Shown here: piece after piece, positions 4,863 to 41,625 of the stretch | Position numbering within the stretch: the first letter of the stretch is position 1 | How the letters are laid out: each line of letters begins with the position of its first letter | Assembly (NCBI GenBank): GCA_020241865.1 | Contig: GCA_020241865.1_4709.1 | Direction: 5' to 3' (one strand) | DNA length: 64,000 bases | Source of the DNA: a phage | The notes under the pieces: generated by a model | Seen by the model: only the letters and a program-made list of their open reading frames with translations | Told to the model about the DNA's origin: nothing | Database searches by the model: none | Position numbers and translations under genes: made by a program

Positions 4863-5135
4863 TTACGAGGTTAACCACGATTCAATTGTGGTGAGTTTGC
4901 TTCTCAGTACGCGCCAACTAGGGTGTGGTGGGATCACAGCGCCTTTGTCGATTACGGTTAGCTGAACCTGGTACTTCTGTTGCATACGCGCTACCGTGTC
5001 GCTTATCGAGAGGAAAAGCTGGTAACGTTCATATGCCGTCAGTTCACTGTCCTGTTGAACTGCGTTGGCCGCTAACGTAATTTCGCGTAAGTCCTTTGCA
5101 TCCACAGAGACGGTAATGAGTTTATATTGACTCAT
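4863..5135 (-). CDS. small hypothetical protein (90 aa)
   Basis: ORF track; ATG 5135 with AAGGA upstream; sits between stem-loop 4808-4842 and next gene. Confidence 0.6.
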   Translation of the reverse strand: MSQYKLITVSVDAKDLREITLAANAVQQDSELTAYERYQLFLSISDTVARMQQKYQVQLTVIDKGAVIPPHPSWRVLRSKLTTIESWLTS

Positions 5136-5196: not shown

Positions 5197-7755
5197 TTAC
5201 TGCTCTTCACGTTCCAGCAGATACTCGGAAGCGGTAATACCGTTTACCGTACGTACTGCTTTCAGACGAGTATCATCGCTCAGAATTACAGTAACAGATT
5301 GCAGACCTTTTACTTTGGTTTCGAAGGTCTTGAACACCTGATCCAGCATACGAGCAATGCTTGGGTTGGTTGCAGCTGATGCGTGGGTGTAACCGCTTTG
5401 GTTCAGCTTCAGAATCTTGGCGTTGGTCGGTACGCGAACAACAACATGCGGACGCATCGCGAATACGCTGTGATTAAACCAGTAAGCATCGTTGCTATCT
5501 TCGTCGGTAACGATGTCTGGATTAACACGCATATCCTCGACAGCCGCATCCGCCAAACGACGTTCGATTTCGTCAGCATCCAGAGAGCCATCTTTCTCCA
5601 GTTCTGCACGATACTCACTCATGGCAACCAGATGACGTTCACGATTCGCTGCGGATTTTTCGTGAGCGGCTTTCAGGTAGTCATGCATGTTGTACAGTTC
5701 TGCCATGGAAAGACGAATGTTCCACTGACCTTCGCCGTCACGATTGCAGTAGAGACACTTCAGCATGTTGACCCAGGTATAGTAGCAATTGGAGAATTCA
5801 TCTTCAATGAACTTCTGGTCCATTTTAAGATCGTGAATCAGCCAACCGGACAGTTCTCCGATATCATCAACGAAGCTAGAGATGGTGGTTTCAGAGAAGT
5901 TCTTCGGTACGATACGTTTGATCAGCTTATTGACGTCTTTGGTCATGCTATCGTTCAGGAAATGCCAGATACGCAGAGGAATGACATCTCGATACTGTTG
6001 CATGATCTGACGATAAGCTTTGATATCGTCGCTACGACCTTTATCAATAGACAACGCATCCAGGAATTCATGGATTGCATCCAGCTCTTTGTCGGTATAG
6101 GTTCCCAGATAGGAATTGACCGTAGCCAGGAATGCTAATGCGTCGTTTTGGTTGACGTCGGTGTTGGTCTGCTGAATGATCGCTACTGAAGCTTTGGTTT
6201 CAGCATCCTCAACGCTTGACGCTGCGATCGCATCGGTGACGGTAAACAGTTTCATTTCGCGCTGCTCACCGACAACGATTGGCTCACGCTGAACCGGCTT
6301 GTTAAGACTAACGCGAACGACTTCTGCTTGCGCGATACGATCCAGTTTTGCCATTTCCTGCTCTGCCATACGACGAGCGGTTGGATCTGATTCAAGTTCG
6401 ATGTATTCCACTTCTTCCTCCGTGAGGGATGTAATGTCAACAATGGTTTCATGAAGAATTCCGTTTTCGTCGATACGTGCTCGACGAGCGAAGTGCCTGA
6501 AGTCATACAACGTCGGCCAACGACTATTAGGTGCGTAGTCTTTGGCTTTCAGACGCATCTGCATAAATTCTTCATGTTGAACAACACGACCGTAACGCTT
6601 AGCATCTTCGGTCGCATCAATTGGATTAACGGTCTTTGTTGCCGTAGCGGAACGAGCCGTACGAACCGGTTCCGGTTTCACCTGCGTCGGTTCAGGTTGA
6701 ACGGGTTTCTGCTGTCCAGCCTTAACATGCCATTCTGGCTCTTCGTACTGTTCAGCAAATTGCTCAGCCGCTGCAAAGATATCGTTGATACCACCAATAT
6801 CTCCTTCAGGATTTGTCGAGTAAATCCGTGGTTGTGGTGCCTCGTAACGCGGCGCTGTAGCAGCAGGTGCGTCATCAACGATAGGATCGTCATCACCAAC
6901 ATCATACAAACGGTTGAACGCACAATCCTTCGAATCAATGTACGATGGCGCTTGTGGTTGGACAACCGTCGGCCGAGGTTGTGCGCCGTATCCTGGTGTT
7001 GTTGGAGCCATGCCGCGCATAACTGCCGGACTAGGTTGGTATTGCGGTTGCGGATAGGTTCCACCATACATGGCGTACGCAGGCTGTTGTGGTTGACCAT
7101 ACCCGCTGCTAACCATCGCACTTGCTTGCGGCCCACGATAAGTCATCCCCATCTGCATCACCTGCTGCTTCAAACCACGTGACTTCTGAGCGATTTGCGC
7201 CAGACTCCCGCTTTTATTCAGCTGCGTGTACTTATTCGCGGCTTCCGGGTTAATGCGTGATAATTCAATCGCGCGATAATATTCCGGGTACTGATTCGGT
7301 TCAAAGAGCCACGTTACAAGATGATACAGCGCAACTGTACTCACGGCAGCAGAGACGATCTGGTCATCGGACGCGTTCTGTGGCATCGGGTTGATGTAAG
7401 AGAATACGTTCCAACAACAGTCTTCAACAAGCGATTCCATCATCATATCGTTATTGGTATAACGTGCGACGAACTCGGTTTGTATTTTGTCTTGCTGAGC
7501 GAAGTCTTTCAGGACATTAAAGATGGCTTGACGGATTTTGACGATCGTCGCTTCTTGGGTGATGAAGTTATAGTTCTGCTGATATGAGGGTTGTTGGTAT
7601 TGTGGTGGTTGATAGGCGTTATTCGGGTATGCGCCGTACGGCGATTGCTGATACTGTTGCTGGCGAACCTGTTCAGCCGCATAATTAACCGTGCTCGTAT
7701 AAGGGTTTTCGCTATAACCCATTTGTTGATACATGTTGTTACTGCCATTATACAT
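5197..7755 (-). CDS. hypothetical protein (852 aa) with Q/Y/P-rich low-complexity N-terminus and internal segment
   Basis: ORF track; ATG 7755 with AAAGGA upstream; long stop-free antisense frames suggest codon bias. Confidence 0.85.
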   Translation of the reverse strand: MYNGSNNMYQQMGYSENPYTSTVNYAAEQVRQQQYQQSPYGAYPNNAYQPPQYQQPSYQQNYNFITQEATIVKIRQAIFNVLKDFAQQDKIQTEFVARYTNNDMMMESLVEDCCWNVFSYINPMPQNASDDQIVSAAVSTVALYHLVTWLFEPNQYPEYYRAIELSRINPEAANKYTQLNKSGSLAQIAQKSRGLKQQVMQMGMTYRGPQASAMVSSGYGQPQQPAYAMYGGTYPQPQYQPSPAVMRGMAPTTPGYGAQPRPTVVQPQAPSYIDSKDCAFNRLYDVGDDDPIVDDAPAATAPRYEAPQPRIYSTNPEGDIGGINDIFAAAEQFAEQYEEPEWHVKAGQQKPVQPEPTQVKPEPVRTARSATATKTVNPIDATEDAKRYGRVVQHEEFMQMRLKAKDYAPNSRWPTLYDFRHFARRARIDENGILHETIVDITSLTEEEVEYIELESDPTARRMAEQEMAKLDRIAQAEVVRVSLNKPVQREPIVVGEQREMKLFTVTDAIAASSVEDAETKASVAIIQQTNTDVNQNDALAFLATVNSYLGTYTDKELDAIHEFLDALSIDKGRSDDIKAYRQIMQQYRDVIPLRIWHFLNDSMTKDVNKLIKRIVPKNFSETTISSFVDDIGELSGWLIHDLKMDQKFIEDEFSNCYYTWVNMLKCLYCNRDGEGQWNIRLSMAELYNMHDYLKAAHEKSAANRERHLVAMSEYRAELEKDGSLDADEIERRLADAAVEDMRVNPDIVTDEDSNDAYWFNHSVFAMRPHVVVRVPTNAKILKLNQSGYTHASAATNPSIARMLDQVFKTFETKVKGLQSVTVILSDDTRLKAVRTVNGITASEYLLEREEQ

Positions 7756-7789
7756 TTCTTACGATCCTTTTTATTTATTCGGTTATGTG

Positions 7790-9586
7790 TCAATCGATTA
7801 TGTCGTGATCGTTAATTTCTACAATTTCTTCATCGAATCGACCGACGTCTTTCTTCAAGCCTGCATTGGTTGCTGCAACGTCATTTGCAATTTGTGGGGT
7901 AATGATTAACCGACCGCGCTCATCGATAGGTGCGTACATACTGAACTTCTGACGTCCGGTTGGTTCGGAGTGTGGAAGATTCAGATAGCTTGCACAGAAC
8001 GGGATGGAACCACTAACCAAACGACTCTCGTCAGCCAATGCAGCACCGCCTGCGTTTTGGCTCTGGAGAACAACATGCGTGCTCACTTTGAACAGCATGC
8101 AATCACCCGGTGACTGAATCGATGTTGCCACTTTCTCACGTTTATCACGATTGCTCTGGATATTGAGAATCGCTTCCGTTGCAACTTGATTTCGCAACGC
8201 CTTCTGTACATCGCGATTGGTCATCTCTTTACGGTTGTTCTGTCGTTTACCACGTTCTGTGGTTTTAAGATGGAACCCCAGTTTAAAGATGCTCTTACGC
8301 ACATCCTCCATGACATATTCCAACACCATCAATTCCTTACCGAACATCGTCGTGGTATCAACACGACTCATTTCGATAGTAACATTGTCAATCAGATAGG
8401 CCATAAATTCATAGAAGTCGTCGCAAGGAATATTTTCCTGTTTGAACTTCTTCTGCTGAATTTCGTCAACGTAAAGATCGAGACTGTCGATGTGGTGGTT
8501 TACATCACGCAACAAACGCGCATCCGCATTGTTGTTATTAAAGATAATCAAACCGAGTAATGTACGCCAATGGTCTGGCGCATTCGCGAACTCTTCAACC
8601 GGATAGTCTTCCGGAAAACGATCGTAATAACGGTCGATGAGATACAAGAATGCACCGACAAGGCCAAGAACAATACGTTCCGTGCCTCCACGTCTTACTG
8701 CAATTTGAATATCAGGATGTTTGTAACGTACAGCGCTAGCGCTACGGCTTTTACCGCTTTTGCTGATACTAAAACCTTTAGGAATAACCCCCATGGTGCG
8801 ATAGATTACCCATTGGTCACGCGGAAAATCACGTTCAGCAAGGTTCCGTCCGGTTACGGCTTCGACACCTGCAAAACGTCGGAAACACTCACCCACCCCG
8901 TACTTCGCAAAGAGATAGTGACCCAGTGTGGTTACGCTGGTGTGGTTGATGTTGTCACCGTTCACTTTACTTTGTTTGGTAAGATGATAGATTTGTGACC
9001 AGGGTAATGACAGGTAATGACGATAATCGATACCGGTCGGTGTATCATTGCTCAGGAACTGATACGGTGTACGTTTAACCGTGATTTTGTCACGCGGAAG
9101 CATGATGAACGCCATGTCTTTCGTGTAACTGATTACCGGGTCAGCGAGCACTGCACTGAGAATGAAGTTCGCACCACGTAGACGCATTTTACCACCCTGA
9201 CCTACCGCGGGTAATAGGAGAGGATGTCGGATAATGCAGTAGTCCTTTCCGGGTTCACGACGGTCACCTGATTCCATCGCTCCGTACCAGCGGAATTCTA
9301 GCATCACCATAAACACATCGGATGGCGCAAGGTCGAAGGTCAGCTTACCGCTATCCTTCCCTTTGGTTTTCTTTCCTCCGCTTAAGTAGTGGAACTGTTC
9401 GCGGGCCATACAGCGACGCAGGCCATGATACACCAGATCCTTAGGTAAACTATCTTTGCTGTTCCGCCAAAGACGATCAACATAGGACTCAACATCTTGC
9501 ATCTTATCGACGACGATGTTGCGTGCTATCTTCTCGTTCATCTTCGGTGCAAGCCCAGCGACAGCTTTGCAGAATCTAGGATCCAT
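7790..9586 (-). CDS. hypothetical protein (about 598 aa)
   Basis: ORF track 7790-9589 starts at GTG; ATG at 9586 has AAAGGAG 6 nt upstream. Confidence 0.85.
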   Translation of the reverse strand: MDPRFCKAVAGLAPKMNEKIARNIVVDKMQDVESYVDRLWRNSKDSLPKDLVYHGLRRCMAREQFHYLSGGKKTKGKDSGKLTFDLAPSDVFMVMLEFRWYGAMESGDRREPGKDYCIIRHPLLLPAVGQGGKMRLRGANFILSAVLADPVISYTKDMAFIMLPRDKITVKRTPYQFLSNDTPTGIDYRHYLSLPWSQIYHLTKQSKVNGDNINHTSVTTLGHYLFAKYGVGECFRRFAGVEAVTGRNLAERDFPRDQWVIYRTMGVIPKGFSISKSGKSRSASAVRYKHPDIQIAVRRGGTERIVLGLVGAFLYLIDRYYDRFPEDYPVEEFANAPDHWRTLLGLIIFNNNNADARLLRDVNHHIDSLDLYVDEIQQKKFKQENIPCDDFYEFMAYLIDNVTIEMSRVDTTTMFGKELMVLEYVMEDVRKSIFKLGFHLKTTERGKRQNNRKEMTNRDVQKALRNQVATEAILNIQSNRDKREKVATSIQSPGDCMLFKVSTHVVLQSQNAGGAALADESRLVSGSIPFCASYLNLPHSEPTGRQKFSMYAPIDERGRLIITPQIANDVAATNAGLKKDVGRFDEEIVEINDHDIID

Positions 9587-9625
9587 CACACACTCCTTTC
9601 AGAAAGTTGCTTAAGCAGATTAAAG

Positions 9626-11062
9626 TTACTTTTTCGATGACGCTTTCTCAAGAATCTTGAAAAAGGTCATACCTATACCGACAACGGCCGCGGTTATGCT
9701 CGCAGCGGCTTTCCAAACATCGACGTTACGTTGACGTCGCGCTTCTTCCGCTTCACGTTGTCTTTTTGCCTCTTCATCACGTCGACGTATCTCAGCAGCA
9801 AACTCGTCGTGCTTACGTTTGGATTCTTCGTCTCGACGACGAAGTTCAGCGACGAATTCTTCATGTTTGCGTTTAGCCTCGTCATCACGACGTTTTAAAT
9901 CAGCTTGATAATCTTCGTGTATTTGTCTACGTAGATCATCTTGACGTTTCATTTCGGCTTGGTGTTGTTCCATCCTACGTTTTTGTTCGTCTTTAAGCTG
10001 ATCGAGTTCGGCTTTATGTTGTTCATCACGCAGCTTTGCGTCGGCGCGATGCGCCTCATGCATCTGTGCGATAACTGCCTTGTGTTCATCCGCCATACGT
10101 CGCATTTCAGCCATCACCCCTTTAAGGGTTTCTTCTGATGCCTTACGTTCGTAGCTACGTTGGTCGAAATCATTTTTGTAGGCTTCTTTTTGGATGGGGT
10201 CGCGCCAATGCAATGCCGATTCACGCGTCGGAAAAACATTGTACTTCCACATCTCTTTTTCCAAATCTTCGACCGGTACGAAGATGGAGTCATTATTCCC
10301 GAAGGTAACCAACATACCTGGCGCGCCTGCTCCATTCGTTGGTTTTATTTCGAACGCTTTCCCCAGCACGTTAACCCATAAGCTATACGGATTATGAAAG
10401 TCGGGCGGCGTCCAATGGATAGTGAGTTGCGTTCCGAGAATCCGGAAACCCTCTGTTTTTCCCGTCAAGCTCCGCGCGCACGTTGCGATGTAGGGGTGAT
10501 CAATCCCTTTCGTAACGTGGTCTGCGCTTTTGTATTCTCCTTTAACTTTTACGATTGCCACGTTGATTTGCGCGACATAAGCAGGTTGATTAAAGTTCAG
10601 CGTGTTGAGGTCAATTTGACATATTTCATCCAGCGTATCGTACCAGTCTTGCTGGTCTAATAGACGCGGCATTTTCTCTGTGTTAACAATACGACGGATA
10701 TGCGGTTTCCTTATCGCGTAACCTGTGCCGTTTTTAACACGGAGTATATCCCGACGTCTACCCGCGTAGACGAAGTTTCTGAATGCACCATTCGCATTAG
10801 ATACGTCATGGCTGTCAACTATTACAGGACTACGAAATTTTGAACGTCGTACGATCCTGAATGTATTGCCGTCCTCAACCCTACCAGGAATGTACTGGAA
10901 CATATTGTCGGAGGTGATAACCAACACGGTATGGCCAGATTCATTAATACATGCCCATCCTAATTCCAGGTCATATAACGGTTCAGCATAACCGTCAATG
11001 CGATAAGCGTGCGTACCATCCCACGGTTCGAACGCGGTATCACATATTGGCATGGAGGGCAT
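9626..11062 (-). CDS. tail-anchored membrane protein candidate: globular N-domain, charged repeat helix, C-terminal hydrophobic segment
   Basis: ORF track (track start 11068 is TTG; ATG 11062 has GGAGG 7 nt upstream); in-frame repeats RRRDEE-x-KRKH-x-EF; hydrophobic stretch AAASITAAVVGIGMTFF near C-terminus. Confidence 0.8.
   Translation of the reverse strand: MPSMPICDTAFEPWDGTHAYRIDGYAEPLYDLELGWACINESGHTVLVITSDNMFQYIPGRVEDGNTFRIVRRSKFRSPVIVDSHDVSNANGAFRNFVYAGRRRDILRVKNGTGYAIRKPHIRRIVNTEKMPRLLDQQDWYDTLDEICQIDLNTLNFNQPAYVAQINVAIVKVKGEYKSADHVTKGIDHPYIATCARSLTGKTEGFRILGTQLTIHWTPPDFHNPYSLWVNVLGKAFEIKPTNGAGAPGMLVTFGNNDSIFVPVEDLEKEMWKYNVFPTRESALHWRDPIQKEAYKNDFDQRSYERKASEETLKGVMAEMRRMADEHKAVIAQMHEAHRADAKLRDEQHKAELDQLKDEQKRRMEQHQAEMKRQDDLRRQIHEDYQADLKRRDDEAKRKHEEFVAELRRRDEESKRKHDEFAAEIRRRDEEAKRQREAEEARRQRNVDVWKAAASITAAVVGIGMTFFKILEKASSKK
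9775..9915 (-). repeat. in-frame tandem repeats inside CDS 9626-11062 encoding charged helix repeats
   Basis: Repeated DNA units visible at about 9780-9900 translating to KRRDDEAKRKHEEFVAELRRRDEESKRKHDEFAAEIRRRDEEAKRQ. Confidence 0.7.
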
Positions 11063-11211
11063 CGTCAACCTCCATCTGATTGAAAACTATCACGCATAAT
11101 ACATTTCCCTTTTCTTGTTCTTATCGAGCCGACAGCCGACGGTTTCAGCATCGTTCCTAGCGCGAGAACGACCTTACGTGTTGTCTATGCCTTATTCATC
11201 GCAGGCGTCTG

Positions 11212-17567: not shown

Positions 17568-18470
17568 TTACTTAGTCTTCGAGTTACAAGGACTGACATG
17601 TTGTTGTACTCGTTGAATCGTATCGTAGTACGGGTTAGATTGGTTGAACATGCTGTTGTGTGGATGATAGCCGTATGGCGCATTTTGCCTTGTTGATGAG
17701 AAACCTTGTTGAGAAGGACGATTTGAATTAACCGCGAGTACGTAGTAAACCAAATTTTGACGGTCGAACGTTCCTTCGTTTTTGAAGGTGTCGGCGTAGG
17801 TGTTTATCGCTGGAGCGAGTCTATCACCATCGGCGGTAATAATTGTACCGTCTGGGTAAACTTCACGAACGACGCACCATGTTCCGATAAGAACGTCTTT
17901 GGGCGGCGTATTGCCGTATCCGGTTGTAACGGTAAGGTAAGTATCGAACCCTTCAGAACAACAAGGATGACGATAGATAGGTCCTGTCATTTCCGTTCTA
18001 TCGGTATCGTCGCATTTCTCTATCGAGAGCGATGGTGTGTCGGTTTTGAAATTGTCAAATTCTTTCTTTAAGTCGATTACAGGTTCTTTCGTATAGTACT
18101 TCTTGATTGCTTTGACGTAAAGATCAGGAACGGTTGTCAGCATTCCGTTATACCTGATTCTCAGGTTTTCGAGTAATCCAAAGATACTCGCGCATGCTTG
18201 TTCGCGAGGTTTTGTAAGATAAGAGATCCCCCCAGGAACGCTGGGATCTTTGAGAAAGAAGATTGCGTTATTGTCGTTGTGCAGTGCGTTGAAGAAAACG
18301 ATTGATTCGATATATACGGAGCATAGGCTGTCGTTGGCGTCGTCAGATAACACCCAGATGCACTCATCGGTCGTCTTGTTTAAAAGTTCTGTTTTGTCCA
18401 CCAAACGTTGTTTCATTGCGAGGAAATGTGCCTGTTGTTCAGCGGATAATTCACGATAAATAGTGGTCAT
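17568..18470 (-). CDS. hypothetical protein, tandem paralog of 18556-19329 (about 300 aa)
   Basis: Track ORF 17568-18548 trimmed to ATG 18470 (AAGGAG 6 nt upstream); shares IY-HP-C...YL-T-G and REVYPDG-I motifs with neighbour. Confidence 0.8.
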   Translation of the reverse strand: MTTIYRELSAEQQAHFLAMKQRLVDKTELLNKTTDECIWVLSDDANDSLCSVYIESIVFFNALHNDNNAIFFLKDPSVPGGISYLTKPREQACASIFGLLENLRIRYNGMLTTVPDLYVKAIKKYYTKEPVIDLKKEFDNFKTDTPSLSIEKCDDTDRTEMTGPIYRHPCCSEGFDTYLTVTTGYGNTPPKDVLIGTWCVVREVYPDGTIITADGDRLAPAINTYADTFKNEGTFDRQNLVYYVLAVNSNRPSQQGFSSTRQNAPYGYHPHNSMFNQSNPYYDTIQRVQQHVSPCNSKTK

Positions 18471-36281: not shown

Positions 36282-37388
36282 TTAACGAATCTGTGGGACG
36301 TTTCCGGTACGGAGCGCCTGGAGGATCGTCAGGAGATCGGAACCCGAGGTTGACGAACTGTTGGATTTTTCCAGCTGCTTGAAGCTTACGGTGGTCCCTT
36401 GATCCAAGCTGTGGAAATAGAAGGTCACCATCTCTTCAGCTTCGTCGATGATGATCAACTGCATTGCGAGGGCTTCAGCCATGACTTTCTGACGTGTGGT
36501 ATAATCAGATAAACGACGTCCGATCTTACGCTCGATGGCTTCCTGGTTAGCCTTAGAGATGATATAGGTGGAGGCGATGGCTCCAGAAGAAGGGATCTTT
36601 GTGCTCGCTGCAGCTTTTGCGGCATTGATGCGCGCAGCATTAACAGCCTTACGGATACCCTCTTTATCCATGCGTGAGATTCGTTTGTGTTCGCGAACCA
36701 GATCGCTAAGCAGGATCATATCGCTCCAGAAAGACAGCTCACCGGCCATCATGCGATGCCAACGTGCTCGCCAGGTGTTCTGTGGGCCGCCAATCGCTAA
36801 AATCGACGCAAGCACTTCCGCTGGAGAGCTTGCAATACGCATGCTGATGTTCAACGGCATTTTCATCGTTGCCTGACCATCGGTCAGCGTCACGGTTAAG
36901 AACTTGCCGGTGACCGCGTTTGCATCTTTGTTCAGCAATTCGATCGCCGCGTCGCTGGCTCCAACATCGAGGCTATTTTTTTGTTTCCCCTGTAGGTTGA
37001 ATCCTTTGTCATCAAGGAAAACAAGGCTTTTGCTATCCGCACTTTCCAGCGCTAATTTAACGGCCTTATCCATCAGGTTAGCGTTACGGTTTGGGTTCAC
37101 ACGACCCAGCGTTTTATCGACACTGATGTTACCCACCTGCATGATGGTATTCAACGCCAGTAAATAGAACCCGGTATACATGTTTTCAGCGGTGCGCATG
37201 CAGTTGCCTAACGCATTGCGTGCGTCGCTATAATACAACTCACGTTCAAAGATCAACGGCGCGATAACGCGTGAAGGTTGTGAGAGTTCAACCAGCGAAC
37301 CTGGCTGGATAAGTTTATTAACTTCGTAGACTTTAGCGATACCTGACGCAACAACATTAACAGCGTCGGCAATTTCTGATGCTACCAT
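36282..37388 (-). CDS. hypothetical protein (368 aa)
   Basis: ORF track; ATG 37388 with AAGGA upstream. Confidence 0.8.
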   Translation of the reverse strand: MVASEIADAVNVVASGIAKVYEVNKLIQPGSLVELSQPSRVIAPLIFERELYYSDARNALGNCMRTAENMYTGFYLLALNTIMQVGNISVDKTLGRVNPNRNANLMDKAVKLALESADSKSLVFLDDKGFNLQGKQKNSLDVGASDAAIELLNKDANAVTGKFLTVTLTDGQATMKMPLNISMRIASSPAEVLASILAIGGPQNTWRARWHRMMAGELSFWSDMILLSDLVREHKRISRMDKEGIRKAVNAARINAAKAAASTKIPSSGAIASTYIISKANQEAIERKIGRRLSDYTTRQKVMAEALAMQLIIIDEAEEMVTFYFHSLDQGTTVSFKQLEKSNSSSTSGSDLLTILQALRTGNVPQIR

Positions 37389-37422
37389 ATTGAAATCCTT
37401 ATTTACAAATAAAGGAAAGAAA

Positions 37423-38628
37423 ATGTCTAATTACTACGACCAAGCTATTCAAACCATTCAGGAGAATAATGCGTCGTTAACACCCGAAGCTGTGGAGGCA
37501 GCGGGCAATGCGGTGTTATTCACTGATTCGGATTGGGCAATAGCGCGGAAGAATATTCGTACCAGTGTCGGTCAAGGGACATACGAGGACAGTATCGCCA
37601 GACGGTATCGGAATGTGTCGCCTATTCCTGGTAACAGCCCGATCCCGATTAACCGCGATCATGCCGGTATTACCTTCTTCACACGACCTAATTTACATCT
37701 TACCGACGCGAACTTAAAACGAGATCGACGTTTGTGGTCGTTACGTACGGATAACCCTAACAGTATTCAGGCTGTTGTCCGTGACTACTTGGACCCTGTG
37801 GGTGCCAGAAAGCGGAACCATCGAGGACGTGCCATCGTCGATGAGCGCAATCCATTCATAAGTATACTGACGGACAACCTGACGGATATCAGCGGTTTCA
37901 ATGACATGGAAATGCAGGTCTATCAGGGTAAACCGGGATTACGCCAAGAAACCGTTGTGATGGCTGACGGTTCAGTGGATATGTTCCAGCCTTATAACCT
38001 GAACGCGACGTTCAAGAACATCATGGGTAACCCCATCATGTTCCTTCATTATATTTGGTTGATTTACATCGCAGGCGTGCATAATGGTGAACTGACGCCA
38101 AGCCCTCAGGCCATCATCGACAATGAAATGGATTACTGGACAAGATGCTATCGTATCATCCTGGATCCGACTGGGATGTATGTTCGTTATATCTTCGCAC
38201 CGACCGCGATGTTTCCTGTCGGGTTACCGATTGGTAATATGGCTAACTACAGCATCGATAAACCCTTCACGCAAGATAACGAACGTATCACTATCCCATA
38301 CCAAGCGGTTGGTAACAACGCATTCGATGAAATTCTGAAGGATGAATTCAATCGCCTTGTCCTGATGTTCTATTACGGTGAGAACGATACCCGTACGTTC
38401 CTTGAAGATGAGGAGTTGGTACCTATCTCACCCTACGAGCGTCGAATCATGTCGTATCGTGTCGATATGTATCCATTTATTCATCCGTTGACCTCAGAGC
38501 TTCTTTGGTTCGTACCCGCTGATGATTACAACGAATTCTATCTGGATCTTGAGCCGTCGGCGTTACCACCGGATACGTTCAGTCGCGATCTTGTCCGTAC
38601 CACCATTCCGCAAAATTACGAGGGATAA
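37423..38628 (+). CDS. hypothetical protein (about 401 aa)
   Basis: Track start 37390 is TTG lying 1 nt from the divergent gene start; ATG 37423 has AAGGA 7 nt upstream. Confidence 0.8.
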   Translation: MSNYYDQAIQTIQENNASLTPEAVEAAGNAVLFTDSDWAIARKNIRTSVGQGTYEDSIARRYRNVSPIPGNSPIPINRDHAGITFFTRPNLHLTDANLKRDRRLWSLRTDNPNSIQAVVRDYLDPVGARKRNHRGRAIVDERNPFISILTDNLTDISGFNDMEMQVYQGKPGLRQETVVMADGSVDMFQPYNLNATFKNIMGNPIMFLHYIWLIYIAGVHNGELTPSPQAIIDNEMDYWTRCYRIILDPTGMYVRYIFAPTAMFPVGLPIGNMANYSIDKPFTQDNERITIPYQAVGNNAFDEILKDEFNRLVLMFYYGENDTRTFLEDEELVPISPYERRIMSYRVDMYPFIHPLTSELLWFVPADDYNEFYLDLEPSALPPDTFSRDLVRTTIPQNYEG

Positions 38629-38631
38629 TAA

Positions 38632-41625
38632 ATGAGCGTAACCAACAAAGATCTTGCTGAACAGCTCAATCGCTATATGCTTTCACCTATTGAAATGCAG
38701 GCTATTGCAAGCGATATGATCCGTTTGGCCTCTGATGGCGAGTTAACCCTGGTTGACCCCAGCTGTCCGTTTGTTTATCTGCTGGAGGTTGCAACGGCAA
38801 CGGCTGCGAACCAGAACGCGCGGGATGAGTCCCGTGTTCGCGAACTGTATCCGAAGCTTGCAACCAACTGGAGCCAGCTCTATCGTTGGATGTATGACGA
38901 GTCGTACGTCGGACGTTTCGCAATGCCGGGTAAAACGGAAATCATTTATTCGTTAGGGTATCAGGAAATCCTCGATCGCGCTGTAGAGATTCCCAACACC
39001 ATCGCCTCCGATGATTTAAGCCGTTCTTACAGCCGTAAGTTAGTGATACCACGTACGACAGCGTTTACGGTAGCCGGAATGGATTTCGGGTTACATTATC
39101 CCATCGAAATCCAAGTACAAGCGCACGACCAGATCCGCGTCGTTTATAACACCGATAACATCAGCCCATTGCAAACCTTGGAGAGTAACCAAGTTGAGTA
39201 CGGGGTTGTTCGTGTAAAAGCGGGTAAAGTGTTGGTGATGCGTATCCCGCTGTTCCAGTTTAAAACACTGGTAAAAGATGTGCCGTTTAACAGCGTTCAC
39301 GGGATGAACAGCAGTATTACCTTCGAAGATCAGTTTTACCATTGTCGTGCGTACATGTCGTCAGATAACGATACCTGGACGGAGATAGCGACAACGCACA
39401 GTCAACAGATCTACGATCCGTTAACACCAACCATCGCGTTACAAGTAGAAGGGAACAAACTTAACTGGCGTGTTCCTGAAATTTATTTGTCTCAAGGTAC
39501 GATGGATAAAAGCACCATTCGACTTGAGGTGTTGACGACGAAAGGGAAAATCAGCGTCGACCCGTCTGATTACGACGTGACCGATTGGAAAGATAACTAC
39601 ATCGATCTGTCGCCAAAAGCCGAACAGAAATACAGTGCGCCGCTAAGTGCATTCAACATTAAAGGGATTTATAGCGAAGGGGCGTTGTCGGGTGGGCGAT
39701 CCGCGTTAACGTTCGAGGAACAACGTGAACGCGTTATGGCTGGCGTGAACAAAACCAAGGTGCCGATCACGGGAACGCAGGTAGAGCTGGTGCTTCAAGA
39801 TGCGGGCTACGGGATGGTGACCACCATCGACAACGTAACCAATCGTTCGTTCCTGGCAACCCGAGATTTACCGCAATTGAGCGACAGCGTGCCGCAAGCC
39901 GGTTCGTTGATGGGGTCTTTCTATACGTCAGCTGCAGCATTGGTGAAAAGTAAGTTTGTCGCCGATAACGGCGATCGTATTACGATTAAACCTGACTGCC
40001 TGTATCGCGACAGTAACGGAAGTATCACGCTGTTGTCGGACGATGAAATTGACCGTATTAATGCGGGCAACTCCGATGCGAAGTTGAATGCGGTAAACAA
40101 CGCCATGTTGTTTTACAGTCCGTTTCATTACGTATTAGATGCGACAAGCGATTTCGACATCCACGCTTATTACCTGGATGCCCCTAAGATCGGCACGCAA
40201 GCATTCCTCGACGCGAACGAGACAATCCCGTTAACCGCTATGGTGACCGGATACCGTCTGGATCGTATCGCTGAAGGATATCGTCTAAGCCTCATTGTAG
40301 AAGGTAACGACGCATGGAAGGCGCTCGACGATAAAAACGTGCATGTGCAGCTAGGATTCAATCCGCGGGGTGAGGGCGATTATGCGACGATGTTGGCATC
40401 GCCTACAACCGATGAACAAGGTCGTCGTTTGTTCACCTTCGATATCACCACGAACTATGATTTTACACGAATCCTGGCTGATGATTCCACGGCGTATGAA
40501 CCGTATATCGCATTGACCTCTTTCTCGATGTATGAATCGACACCGCGGGCTTACTGGGCATCACTGCAGCAGTATTTGGAAATCTTCCATGTGGTGACGG
40601 ATTATGCGCCGGAAGATGTCGACGGTATTTTACACAGTGCTTCCGATAATTACCTGGTTAAGAAACTCACGCTTCAAAATGGGTATTGTTTCTACCGTGA
40701 ACGTCTCACCGCAACCTTTGGTTATGATCTGGATGGTCTTTGGATGCGTTCTCGTACGGTGGCCTCGGAGATCACGTATAAACGTTACACCGAGAACATT
40801 CCATGGGTGTATGATGAAGATATTCCAGCGACGGATGAGACCGGTTCTGTTATCATTGAGCAAGGCGATGATGGTACGTTGTCGGTTAAATATCTGCATC
40901 GTAAAGGAGATCCGAAATTAAACAGTGATGGGAGCCAAGCCTATCGTTACCTGAAAGGCGACATCATGAAAGATAATTACGGTAATCCGATCCCCGTCGA
41001 TGAACGTGAGGTTCTGCGTAACCTGGACATGTTCTTTATTGATGCATCGTATCTGTTAGCGAACGATACAGACGTGATTGAGTATCGTAATGCGATTCCT
41101 ACGCAGCTTATCGAATGGATCCAGAACGATATCGACACGTTCATGAATTTCTGTTATGAAGAAACAGAGATTTCACTGTATCCTAAACAATCGCTGGGGT
41201 ATGTGGATGTGATTGTGGAAAACGGATTGGAAACGACGCTTCCTGCTGCCCTATCGTTCAACGTAACACTGTACTTACCAGCTAAGCAATACGCTGACCT
41301 GGATTTACGTCAAGTCCTTCAAGCGATGGTGTCGAAAGTCATCAATGAATGCTTGACATCCCGTACAGTAGCTAAAGCAGAAATGATCGCGATGATTCGT
41401 GAGGAAGGAGGTGACGACATCCTGAACGTTGAAATCGATGATTTTGGACCAGGTAAGAACCTCAGTGTTTATACCGCGAAGAACGACGGTGTTCGTTGTG
41501 CGGTGAAGAAAGAGCTTTATGTGAAAGCGGATGGTATCTTGTCCGTACGTGAAGCGATCGATGTAAGTTTTGTGAAACATGCACAAAGCAACAGTTCAGC
41601 GCTAGCACAAGGCCTTCGTGTCTAA
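38632..41625 (+). CDS. large hypothetical protein (997 aa), structural-protein candidate
   Basis: ORF track; ATG 38632 three nt after upstream stop. Confidence 0.85.
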   Translation: MSVTNKDLAEQLNRYMLSPIEMQAIASDMIRLASDGELTLVDPSCPFVYLLEVATATAANQNARDESRVRELYPKLATNWSQLYRWMYDESYVGRFAMPGKTEIIYSLGYQEILDRAVEIPNTIASDDLSRSYSRKLVIPRTTAFTVAGMDFGLHYPIEIQVQAHDQIRVVYNTDNISPLQTLESNQVEYGVVRVKAGKVLVMRIPLFQFKTLVKDVPFNSVHGMNSSITFEDQFYHCRAYMSSDNDTWTEIATTHSQQIYDPLTPTIALQVEGNKLNWRVPEIYLSQGTMDKSTIRLEVLTTKGKISVDPSDYDVTDWKDNYIDLSPKAEQKYSAPLSAFNIKGIYSEGALSGGRSALTFEEQRERVMAGVNKTKVPITGTQVELVLQDAGYGMVTTIDNVTNRSFLATRDLPQLSDSVPQAGSLMGSFYTSAAALVKSKFVADNGDRITIKPDCLYRDSNGSITLLSDDEIDRINAGNSDAKLNAVNNAMLFYSPFHYVLDATSDFDIHAYYLDAPKIGTQAFLDANETIPLTAMVTGYRLDRIAEGYRLSLIVEGNDAWKALDDKNVHVQLGFNPRGEGDYATMLASPTTDEQGRRLFTFDITTNYDFTRILADDSTAYEPYIALTSFSMYESTPRAYWASLQQYLEIFHVVTDYAPEDVDGILHSASDNYLVKKLTLQNGYCFYRERLTATFGYDLDGLWMRSRTVASEITYKRYTENIPWVYDEDIPATDETGSVIIEQGDDGTLSVKYLHRKGDPKLNSDGSQAYRYLKGDIMKDNYGNPIPVDEREVLRNLDMFFIDASYLLANDTDVIEYRNAIPTQLIEWIQNDIDTFMNFCYEETEISLYPKQSLGYVDVIVENGLETTLPAALSFNVTLYLPAKQYADLDLRQVLQAMVSKVINECLTSRTVAKAEMIAMIREEGGDDILNVEIDDFGPGKNLSVYTAKNDGVRCAVKKELYVKADGILSVREAIDVSFVKHAQSNSSALAQGLRV

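Follow-up and report, generated by a model that had tools for sequence, protein, structure and literature searches.

What kind of phage protein carries long, almost uncharged runs of glutamine, tyrosine and proline, and what might such runs do? The question is raised by an 852-residue protein encoded on the minus strand (5197..7755) of contig GCA_020241865.1_4709.1, assembly GCA_020241865.1, a 64,000-nucleotide stretch of phage DNA that was analysed as a whole and is called the window here. An earlier sequence-only reading had singled out two tracts of this protein, at 6945-7755, as typical of prion-like or phase-separating domains, or of flexible fibre or whisker regions with a possible role at the virion surface. 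On the evidence of gene order and profile comparisons, we assign the protein, gp38 of phage Goslar, to the JADA family of nucleus-forming jumbo phages. We consider it somewhat better than an even bet that the tracts are an intrinsically disordered JADA tail and linker, whose composition is selected and which would serve as stickers and tether.

The open reading frame (ORF) corresponds to gp38 of Escherichia phage vB_EcoM_Goslar (Goslar_00038; 37235-39793), where it is annotated as a 'hypothetical protein'. Identity to Goslar over the window is ~98%, and the gene matches its counterpart at 98.1% of nucleotides and 98.8% of amino acids. Both peptides quoted by the sequence-only reading are exactly present, and the tracts are real; the region given for them covers residues 1-270, with an exact lower bound of 6946. 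The first tract (LC1; residues 1-65, 7561..7755, minus strand like every feature of the gene) is a Q/Y/N/P-rich N-terminal tail. It holds 22% Gln, 18% Tyr, 14% Asn, 9% Pro and 5% Gly, which together make 68%; Gln plus Asn amount to 35%, aromatic residues to 20%, and the charged fraction is 0.05. The second tract (LC2; residues 196-272, 6940..7170) forms the uncharged first half of an inter-domain linker and is rich in Q, P, G, M, Y and A. Over residues 196-270 it contains 17% Gln, 17% Pro, 12% Gly, 11% Ala, 9% Met and 9% Tyr, with 10% aromatic residues and a charged fraction that is also 0.05.

This compositional bias is strong and beyond chance, and the charged fraction of the flanking domains is 0.19-0.29 against ~0.05 in both tracts. 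The earlier statement that the tracts consist almost entirely of Q, Y, P, G and N was right about the bias and overstated its extent, because LC1 reaches 68% and Q, P, G and Y make up only ~56% of LC2, where Met and Ala are also prominent. By an ad hoc definition of a tract, in which six residue types make up 50% or more of 40-residue windows, gp38 is the sole real gene with long tracts of this type in the window; another flagged ORF has only a marginal 43-residue stretch. No tandem DNA repeats were found beneath LC1 or LC2. Among relatives at 80-99% identity, LC1 differs in length by insertions and deletions of Q, Y and P only, and two of these relatives carry a 13-residue expansion. LC2 is free of such changes and nearly invariant in the same five-sequence alignment.

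The identity of gp38 is hidden from direct searches. Neither Pfam nor PHROGs gave a significant family. One Pfam match, Cas9_C_2 at residues 731-791 (E=0.0017; 18.6 bits against a cut-off of 27 bits), was sub-threshold and was treated as chance because it occurs in only 1 of 50 family members. A word-indexed homolog search returned four close relatives (80-99% identity), and a 50-sequence profile query added one. When 1.8 billion representatives were searched exhaustively with HMMER, a single additional relative emerged, P0005, with 37% identity over the C-terminal 500 residues, and tblastn against 50,697 phage records gave nothing beyond Goslar. Since homolog searches were nearly empty, the family was assembled by synteny.

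The anchor was the upstream neighbour (7790..9589, minus strand), a 599-residue beta-type subunit of the non-virion RNA polymerase (nvRNAP; Goslar gp39, phiKZ gp123), which matches phrog_2943 'polymerase' at E=1.2e-119 and is recognisable in 217 chimallivirus records. The gp38 gene begins 34 bp past the stop codon of this subunit in the same direction. Syntenic loci were collected from PhiPA3, Eowyn and Simmy50 and then from 80 loci of IMG/VR. The co-directional order of polymerase and JADA genes recurs in PhiPA3, Eowyn, Simmy50, KTN4 and every sufficiently long contig of ~80 diverse loci. With few exceptions, the first large ORF that follows the polymerase subunit on its strand is 600-890 residues long. 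In the few 'short' cases small ORFs intervene, with the real gene behind them. An iterative hidden Markov model (HMM) search from the Goslar-clade C-terminal region (database size 10^6, inclusion E<1e-3) gathered all 72 long syntenic ORFs within five rounds, with matches that run end to end across a C-terminal domain of ~385 positions. A published ortholog table of the chimallivirus core genome groups Goslar gp038 with phiKZ124, 201phi2-1 gp204, RAY gp004 and a PhiPA3 protein, and matches Goslar gp039 to phiKZ gp123 (nvRNAP) and gp040 to phiKZ gp122.

A profile of 50 diverse C-terminal domains, the window's own included, matches the structure 9rp3_A ('Gp316/JADA') over the whole domain at E=1.6e-47. 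A phmmer search with gp38 and an hmmsearch with the Goslar clade both gave no match among PDB sequences, and the relationship between gp38 and 9RP3 is therefore remote. Since these direct searches fail to reach 9RP3, a non-circular comparison was made between disjoint sets. In this hhalign run the five Goslar-clade sequences aligned to 9RP3 and two of its 33%-identical relatives (L073 and L080) with a probability of 98.3% (E=1.7e-14, 235 columns). The architecture of gp38, with a helical region at residues 66-195, a biased coil of ~200 residues and a C-terminal domain from ~393, matches the JADA layout. The taxonomic range agrees as well, for the window is 98% identical to a nucleus-forming jumbo phage. 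Its genomic position, the homology of its C-domain, its domain layout and the taxonomic range thus identify gp38, by sequence-level arguments, as the ortholog of JADA (Pa36 gp316 = phiKZ gp124), and the Goslar gp38 assignment is added by this analysis.

Two further ideas were rejected. PicA/Imp1, a nuclear-import factor, with the tracts seen as FG-nucleoporin-like, had come to mind since phiKZ gp69 also adjoins nvRNAP genes; it was dropped because PicA of Goslar is gp174. A 'short-form' JADA of 261 residues in PhiPA3 proved to be a split by annotation or frameshift. In the GenBank record of that phage (L002, HQ630627; 6649-8737, plus strand) the JADA gene is divided: 'gp140' (261 residues) comprises the N-domain and a G/M/P-rich tail and ends at 7434, and the C-domain (E=4e-44) lies open in another plus-strand frame at 7181-8737, under a reverse-strand 'gp141'. 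The latter is probably spurious because the JADA C-domain ORF runs beneath it. Behind the split lies a frameshift, which is due to a sequencing error or is genuinely present in the low-complexity region.

JADA was described in Pseudomonas phages as Pa36 gp316, with phiKZ_124 as ortholog and PDB 9RP3 as structure (Muralidharan et al., Mol Cell 2026, PMC12931631). It is essential, highly expressed, early, specific to the Chimalliviridae and invariably encoded directly downstream of an nvRNAP subunit gene (PMC12931631). The dimeric C-domain was solved by cryogenic electron microscopy (cryo-EM) at 2.1 Å and suffices on its own to trigger the Sir2 NADase of Avs5 (PMC12931631). Density in the Pa36 map is confined to this domain; the first 170 residues are reported as a confidently predicted domain, and residues 171-269 are predicted disordered (PMC12931631). 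A JADA-mScarlet fusion is diffuse before infection; afterwards it collects in foci at the early phage infection (EPI) vesicle (PMC12931631). When phiKZ124 is knocked down by antisense, the phage propagates less well and its transcription is strongly disturbed at 30 min (PMC12571901). Expression of the Churi homolog is seen at 15 min. The function of JADA was called unknown both in PMC12931631 and again in a review of June 2026. The studied Pa36 protein is identical to KTN4_159, a phiKZ-type gp124, over residues 344-721. Nucleus-forming jumbo phages cannot do without JADA, which is also the trigger of Avs5 immunity. The assignment of gp38 makes JADA accessible in the genetically tractable E. 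coli/Goslar system.

How, then, do the tracts sit within the protein? AlphaFold2 (AF2) was run on full-length gp38 and then on the C-domain with six sequences. Between the two tracts lies an N-terminal domain of ordinary composition (residues 66-195; 7171..7560), which is predicted to be helical in a weak AF2 model; helices at 68-180 are the best-scoring section of that model (predicted local distance difference test, pLDDT, 51-64). LC2 has no secondary structure in the model and scores 20-26, the lowest values in it, and residues 204-372 as a whole are coil of lowest confidence. The other half of the linker (residues 273-392; 6580..6939) is Pro-rich and acidic, with a charged fraction of 0.29, is mostly coil in the model, and contains two conserved islands. 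The first, YDVGDDDP (residues 284-291; 6883..6906), closes the uncharged tract and is invariant in the five-sequence alignment. Its counterparts are 'FDYDEDDV' in P0005, 'AAYDVPGSS' in phiKZ-type JADA and 'AFYDDPPP' in PhiPA3, and an island of this type is not universal across the JADA family. The second, the amphipathic acidic island DIFAAAEQFAEQYEEPEW (residues 325-342; 6730..6783), is near-invariant and overlaps a helix at 324-335 in the AF2 model, with counterparts 'DLYNLAERFAVEEEDPMW' in P0005 and 'D..M.L..EEE.E.MFN.P' in a RAY-like clade; it may be regarded as a candidate binding motif. The C-terminal domain (residues 393-852; 5200..6579) is homologous to the JADA C-domain of PDB 9RP3 by profile comparison.

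Disorder of the Pa36 linker, together with orthology, makes disorder of the gp38 linker well supported by analogy. LC1, judged from its composition alone, is presumably disordered too. Order in homologs and a lack of puncta, which would speak against the low-complexity view of the tracts, are not what was found, because the ortholog's linker gives no density and the ortholog forms infection-induced puncta. As the JADA family was published in 2026 with its linker called disordered, the gp38 tracts are no new kind of feature, and what the sequence-only reading had flagged is largely deflated to the reported disordered linker of a published family. The linker's composition, however, is not discussed in that work: 'low complexity' is absent, 'disordered' appears twice, and linker flavours are unmentioned (PMC12931631).

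Across the family this composition is a recurrent property. At least 60 residues of Q/Y/P/G/N/M-rich sequence occur in 55 of 73 unique orthologs (median 179 residues). The same criterion selects 21 of 621 neighbouring chimallivirus ORFs of at least 200 residues (3.4%), a background that holds some non-coding shadow ORFs and in which several of the 21 are of a different, acidic Gly-rich type. The tract lies at the N-terminus in 43 of the 73 orthologs, between N-domain and C-domain in 51, and starts inside the C-domain in none. In pooled N-terminal halves Q is enriched 2.4-fold, P 2.2-fold, M 1.7-fold and N 1.5-fold; K is depleted to 0.41-fold, H, C, L and I are also depleted, and R is unchanged.

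Orthologs that lack the Q/P tract carry an Arg-rich mixed-charge tract at the same place. It holds 13-25% R, 8-17% D and 8-17% G and includes runs of RGG and of RD dipeptides, as in 'RGRDRDYDRDDRGGRDRDRR' and 'RGGFGRSSGGFGRGREEERRGRYEGRGRDE'. Linkers of this R/D type lie between about residue 150 and the start of the C-domain and are found in L052, L040 (RSF1), L035, L050, L071, L084, L067, L047 (FBKp24), L045 and others. Among 77 unique orthologs, 56 have the Q/P type, 17 the R/D type, two both and two neither, so that a low-complexity linker of one kind or the other is present in 75. The tracts are thus unusual against the local background, as had been proposed for phage proteins at large, and ordinary within their own family. 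The flavours are interspersed, with at least eight changes on a rough neighbour-joining tree of the C-domains. GC content was rejected as the driver of flavour (Q/P type 34-59%, R/D type 43-56%; Mann-Whitney P=0.12). Linker sequences cannot be aligned between clades, yet their composition is kept, and the start of the C-domain varies from residue 227 to 468, a roughly two-fold length range of the preceding region.

The spacing of aromatic residues along the chain gives a further signal. Tyr and Phe are spaced more evenly in LC1 than in shuffled sequences (gap-variance test, P=0.006). Among 50 tracts from across the family, 11 have P<0.05 where 2.5 are expected, 38 of 50 lie below 0.5, and the Fisher combined value is 3e-7; these tracts come from representatives below 60% identity and are not fully independent, though unalignable. 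The JADA family and its disordered linker were already published; the conserved composition, its two interchangeable flavours and the aromatic-spacing signal are new and form a modest lead. That composition is conserved without sequence, that only two flavours occur and that aromatics are evenly spaced argues that the chemistry of these arms, and not just their length, is selected. The repeated swapping of flavours, which does not follow GC content, suggests that the linker's physical properties belong to JADA function. In gp38 we argue that the selected property is a low-charge, Lys-poor, Gln/Pro-rich chain with regularly spaced Tyr and Met 'stickers'. The composition pattern and the aromatic spacing offer a testable lead to what JADA does.

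A working model may be put together from these features. A flexible linker of ~200 residues would tether the small helical N-domain to the dimeric C-domain, and with the C-domains paired in a dimer, every JADA particle would bear two arms. As weakly self-adhesive leashes on the dimer, the arms would let the N-domains reach partners. Weak multivalent contacts among aromatic and Gln residues would help to concentrate abundant JADA at the EPI vesicle, a concentration that would need an infection-specific partner. Such a mechanism is consistent with foci that depend on infection and with otherwise diffuse JADA. We infer both the sticker/tether role and the transfer of ortholog properties to the E. 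coli phage by analogy.

Several observations weigh against the model and are best taken together. The mildly Q/P-rich N-terminal residues of Pa36 JADA fall within its predicted domain, so part of LC1 may pack or fold, and both AF2 models are of low confidence overall (mean pLDDT 37 and 45). In LC2 the evenness of aromatic spacing falls short of significance (P=0.21), and the near-invariance of LC2 fits specific binding as well as a requirement for composition only. JADA-mScarlet is diffuse without infection, and therefore the tracts do not drive assembly alone. The N-domains of the Goslar and phiKZ clades show an hhalign probability of only 0.1%, and HMM iteration from the Goslar N-domain recruited nothing outside the Goslar clade; the gp38 N-domain has either diverged from the phiKZ type past detection or is non-homologous to it. 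The data on essentiality, early expression, foci and Avs5 all come from the Pseudomonas phages Pa36 and phiKZ, and a search of the literature and of the CRISPRi-ART supplements found no fitness, localisation, timing or essentiality data for gp38.

Might the tracts instead be passive entropic spacers that merely hold the N- and C-domains apart, their composition a by-product of replication slippage or relaxed constraint? P/Q-rich flexible linkers are common in envelope and division proteins of E. coli. The two-fold length variation ahead of the C-domain, the gain and loss of Q/Y/P units in LC1 among close relatives, the unalignable linkers and the tolerance of a completely different R/D/G flavour would all be expected of such a spacer, and the C-domain alone is enough for recognition by Avs5 (PMC12931631). 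We nevertheless consider a pure spacer unlikely, if worth keeping in mind. Free drift would hardly confine 75 of 77 orthologs to two flavours that keep recurring, independent of GC content over 34-59%, or deplete Lys 2.4-fold and not Arg. The family-wide evenness of aromatic spacing beyond chance, the near-invariance of LC2 within the Goslar clade and the failure to find tandem DNA repeats likewise speak against slippage and relaxed constraint.

A bolder idea takes the linker for the core of a membraneless assembly around the EPI vesicle, a counterpart of the scaffolds of ribonucleoprotein (RNP) granules rather than a passive tether. FUS-like arms rich in Q, P, Y and M, or RGG/RD arms in the other flavour, would then condense with phage mRNA, ribosomes or nascent shell components and organise the hand-over from vesicle to phage nucleus. 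If true, phages would encode an equivalent of eukaryotic RNP-granule scaffolds, and the idea would explain why JADA is essential, abundant, early and focus-forming and why it is a good target for immune sensing. A literature search found no paper linking EPI-vesicle proteins to condensates. Such a role at the EPI vesicle is plausible by analogy, and we hold it as a speculation with rather poor prospects.

A third proposal is that the linker docks host proteins such as the DnaX clamp loader or FtsZ, in the manner of SSB, through the islands YDVGDDDP and DIFAAAEQFAEQYEEPEW. P0005, at 37% identity, keeps both islands in a linker that has otherwise diverged. Counterparts of the islands occur in phiKZ-type and RAY-type JADA. 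Moreover, phiKZ gp124 is said to co-purify with host DnaX/FtsZ complexes, a second-hand statement in the part of PMC11849849 that cites Van den Bossche et al. 2014; as relayed there, it stems from an affinity-purification screen. No island motif, however, is universal in the JADA family, the resemblance to the SSB tip is loose, and the motifs would leave 60-270 residues of surrounding biased composition unexplained. The idea of a universal SSB-tip-like acidic motif behind the uncharged tract was dropped, as the acidic islands are clade-specific. Docking through these islands as the main purpose of the linker is accordingly improbable.

A true prion domain and a virion element fare worst. The prion-like label is partly supported for the low-complexity chemistry and agrees with the reported puncta, and LC1, with its Gln, Asn and aromatic content and near lack of charge, invites it. 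In the strict sense of a Q/N/Y-rich tail that switches to a self-propagating aggregate it is very unlikely to apply, given that the best 80-residue window (starting at residue 3) has 26 Gln plus Asn against the 30 of Michelitsch and Weissman, that proline makes up 9% of LC1 and 17% of LC2, that the ortholog is soluble enough for cryo-EM at 2.1 Å and diffuse in uninfected cells, and that the highly charged R/D linker of other family members is incompatible with a Q/N amyloid. A fibre, whisker or other virion-surface element is just as improbable and largely refuted: gp038 was found in purified Goslar virions (26 peptides, 28% coverage, an estimated 17-39 copies; liquid chromatography-tandem mass spectrometry, Table S4 of bioRxiv 10.64898/2026.04.21.720040) and the KTN4 GenBank record labels the phiKZ-type JADA a 'putative virion-associated protein', but gp038 lies outside the 28-protein cryo-EM model of the Goslar virion and has no substructure in Table S4, its orthologs are early, abundant, intracellular and EPI-vesicle-associated, and 201phi2-1 gp204 has no virion annotation though its neighbours do. 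The same preparation holds the intracellular proteins chimallin (~126 copies) and PhuZ (~171 copies), an evident carry-over, and therefore low-copy gp038 (~25) is not proof of packaging.

The genes around gp38 add some context. Upstream of the polymerase subunit lies Goslar gp40 (9626-11068, minus strand; 480 residues), in the ortholog column of RAY gp001 and phiKZ gp122. Its C-terminal third has a highly charged helical repeat, three copies of ~17 residues of the type RRRDEEAKRKHEEFVAEL, followed by a hydrophobic helix at the C-terminus, WKAAASITAAVVGIGMTFFKIL, and gp40 may, judging by these features, be a tail-anchored membrane protein. Knockdown of phiKZ122, like that of phiKZ124, is reported to disturb phage transcription strongly at 30 min (PMC12571901). 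Beside the major capsid gene, gp122, gp123 and gp124 form a conserved trio. Directly downstream of the JADA gene, gp37 (4863-5135, minus strand; 90 residues) has only a sub-threshold match to the Vps51/Exo84 N-terminal family.

Elsewhere in the window, an ORF of 300 residues at 17568-18470 (minus strand) ends in a 64-residue tail rich in Q, N, Y, P and S. It was rejected as a second Q/N/Y-rich gene; it overlaps Goslar gp47/gp48 on the same strand with different boundaries and is therefore most likely an out-of-frame shadow. At six other loci (L026, L033, L044, L061, L065 and L077) minus-strand ORFs of 880-965 residues share the motif ILxSSILSPKDM; they look portal-like, and 6 of 13 unique proteins with this motif, from other chimalliviruses, have acidic Gly-rich low-complexity tails of 40-120 residues, such as 'GGGGFGGEAGTGEETPGGESTGFGEEPGLGG'. 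The tract scan of the window's ORFs flagged no acidic Gly-rich tail of the 'GGGGFGGEAGTGEETPGGESTGFGEEPGLGG' kind.

Comparison with well-known low-complexity proteins places the gp38 tracts among several types without making them identical to any. FUS-family RNA-binding proteins combine an S/Y/G/Q-rich prion-like domain with RGG regions. LC1 resembles the former in being uncharged, polar and provided with regularly spaced Tyr, the gp38 tracts are joined to an oligomerising folded domain, the other linker flavour of the JADA family is RGG/RD-rich, and a JADA ortholog forms foci. The gp38 tracts, however, contain far more Pro and Met and less Ser and Gly than the FUS domain, and JADA is diffuse without infection. 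The resemblance is physicochemical and implies no homology.

Sup35 and Ure2 have yeast-type Q/N-rich prion domains, the kind described by the Michelitsch-Weissman definition. The tail of gp38 shares with them a high Gln plus Asn content, aromatic residues, low charge and an N-terminal place, but it stays below 30 Q/N per 80 residues (26) and is high in proline. The bacterial proteins ZipA, FtsK and SSB contain disordered linkers rich in P/Q or G/Q/P, in SSB with an acidic tip. Like them, gp38 is produced in E. coli and has a flexible Gln/Pro/Gly-rich tether between modules that are folded or oligomeric, and the succession of an uncharged tract and an acidic, aromatic island in gp38 recalls, loosely, that of SSB. 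In contrast to these linkers, the gp38 tracts have many more Tyr and Met residues, and the acidic island is internal rather than C-terminal and is not conserved in the family.

The closest comparison is with the JADA proteins of Pa36 and phiKZ. At 852 residues gp38 is 131 residues longer than the 721-residue Pa36 JADA, with an N-terminal tail much richer in Tyr and Gln and a longer linker that has an added acidic half; the C-domains are only ~20% identical, and the N-domains are without detectable similarity. Both proteins nonetheless consist of an N-domain, a long disordered linker and a C-domain of ~380-460 residues. The Pa36/phiKZ linker (residues 171-269) contains 15% P, 13% G, 10% Q, 9% A, 7% each of N, T, M and S, and 4% Y, with a charged fraction of 0.07. 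This linker, invisible in cryo-EM, shares position and type of composition with LC2 of gp38, and the island at its end, 'AAYDVPGSS', is matched by 'RLYDVGDDD' in gp38.

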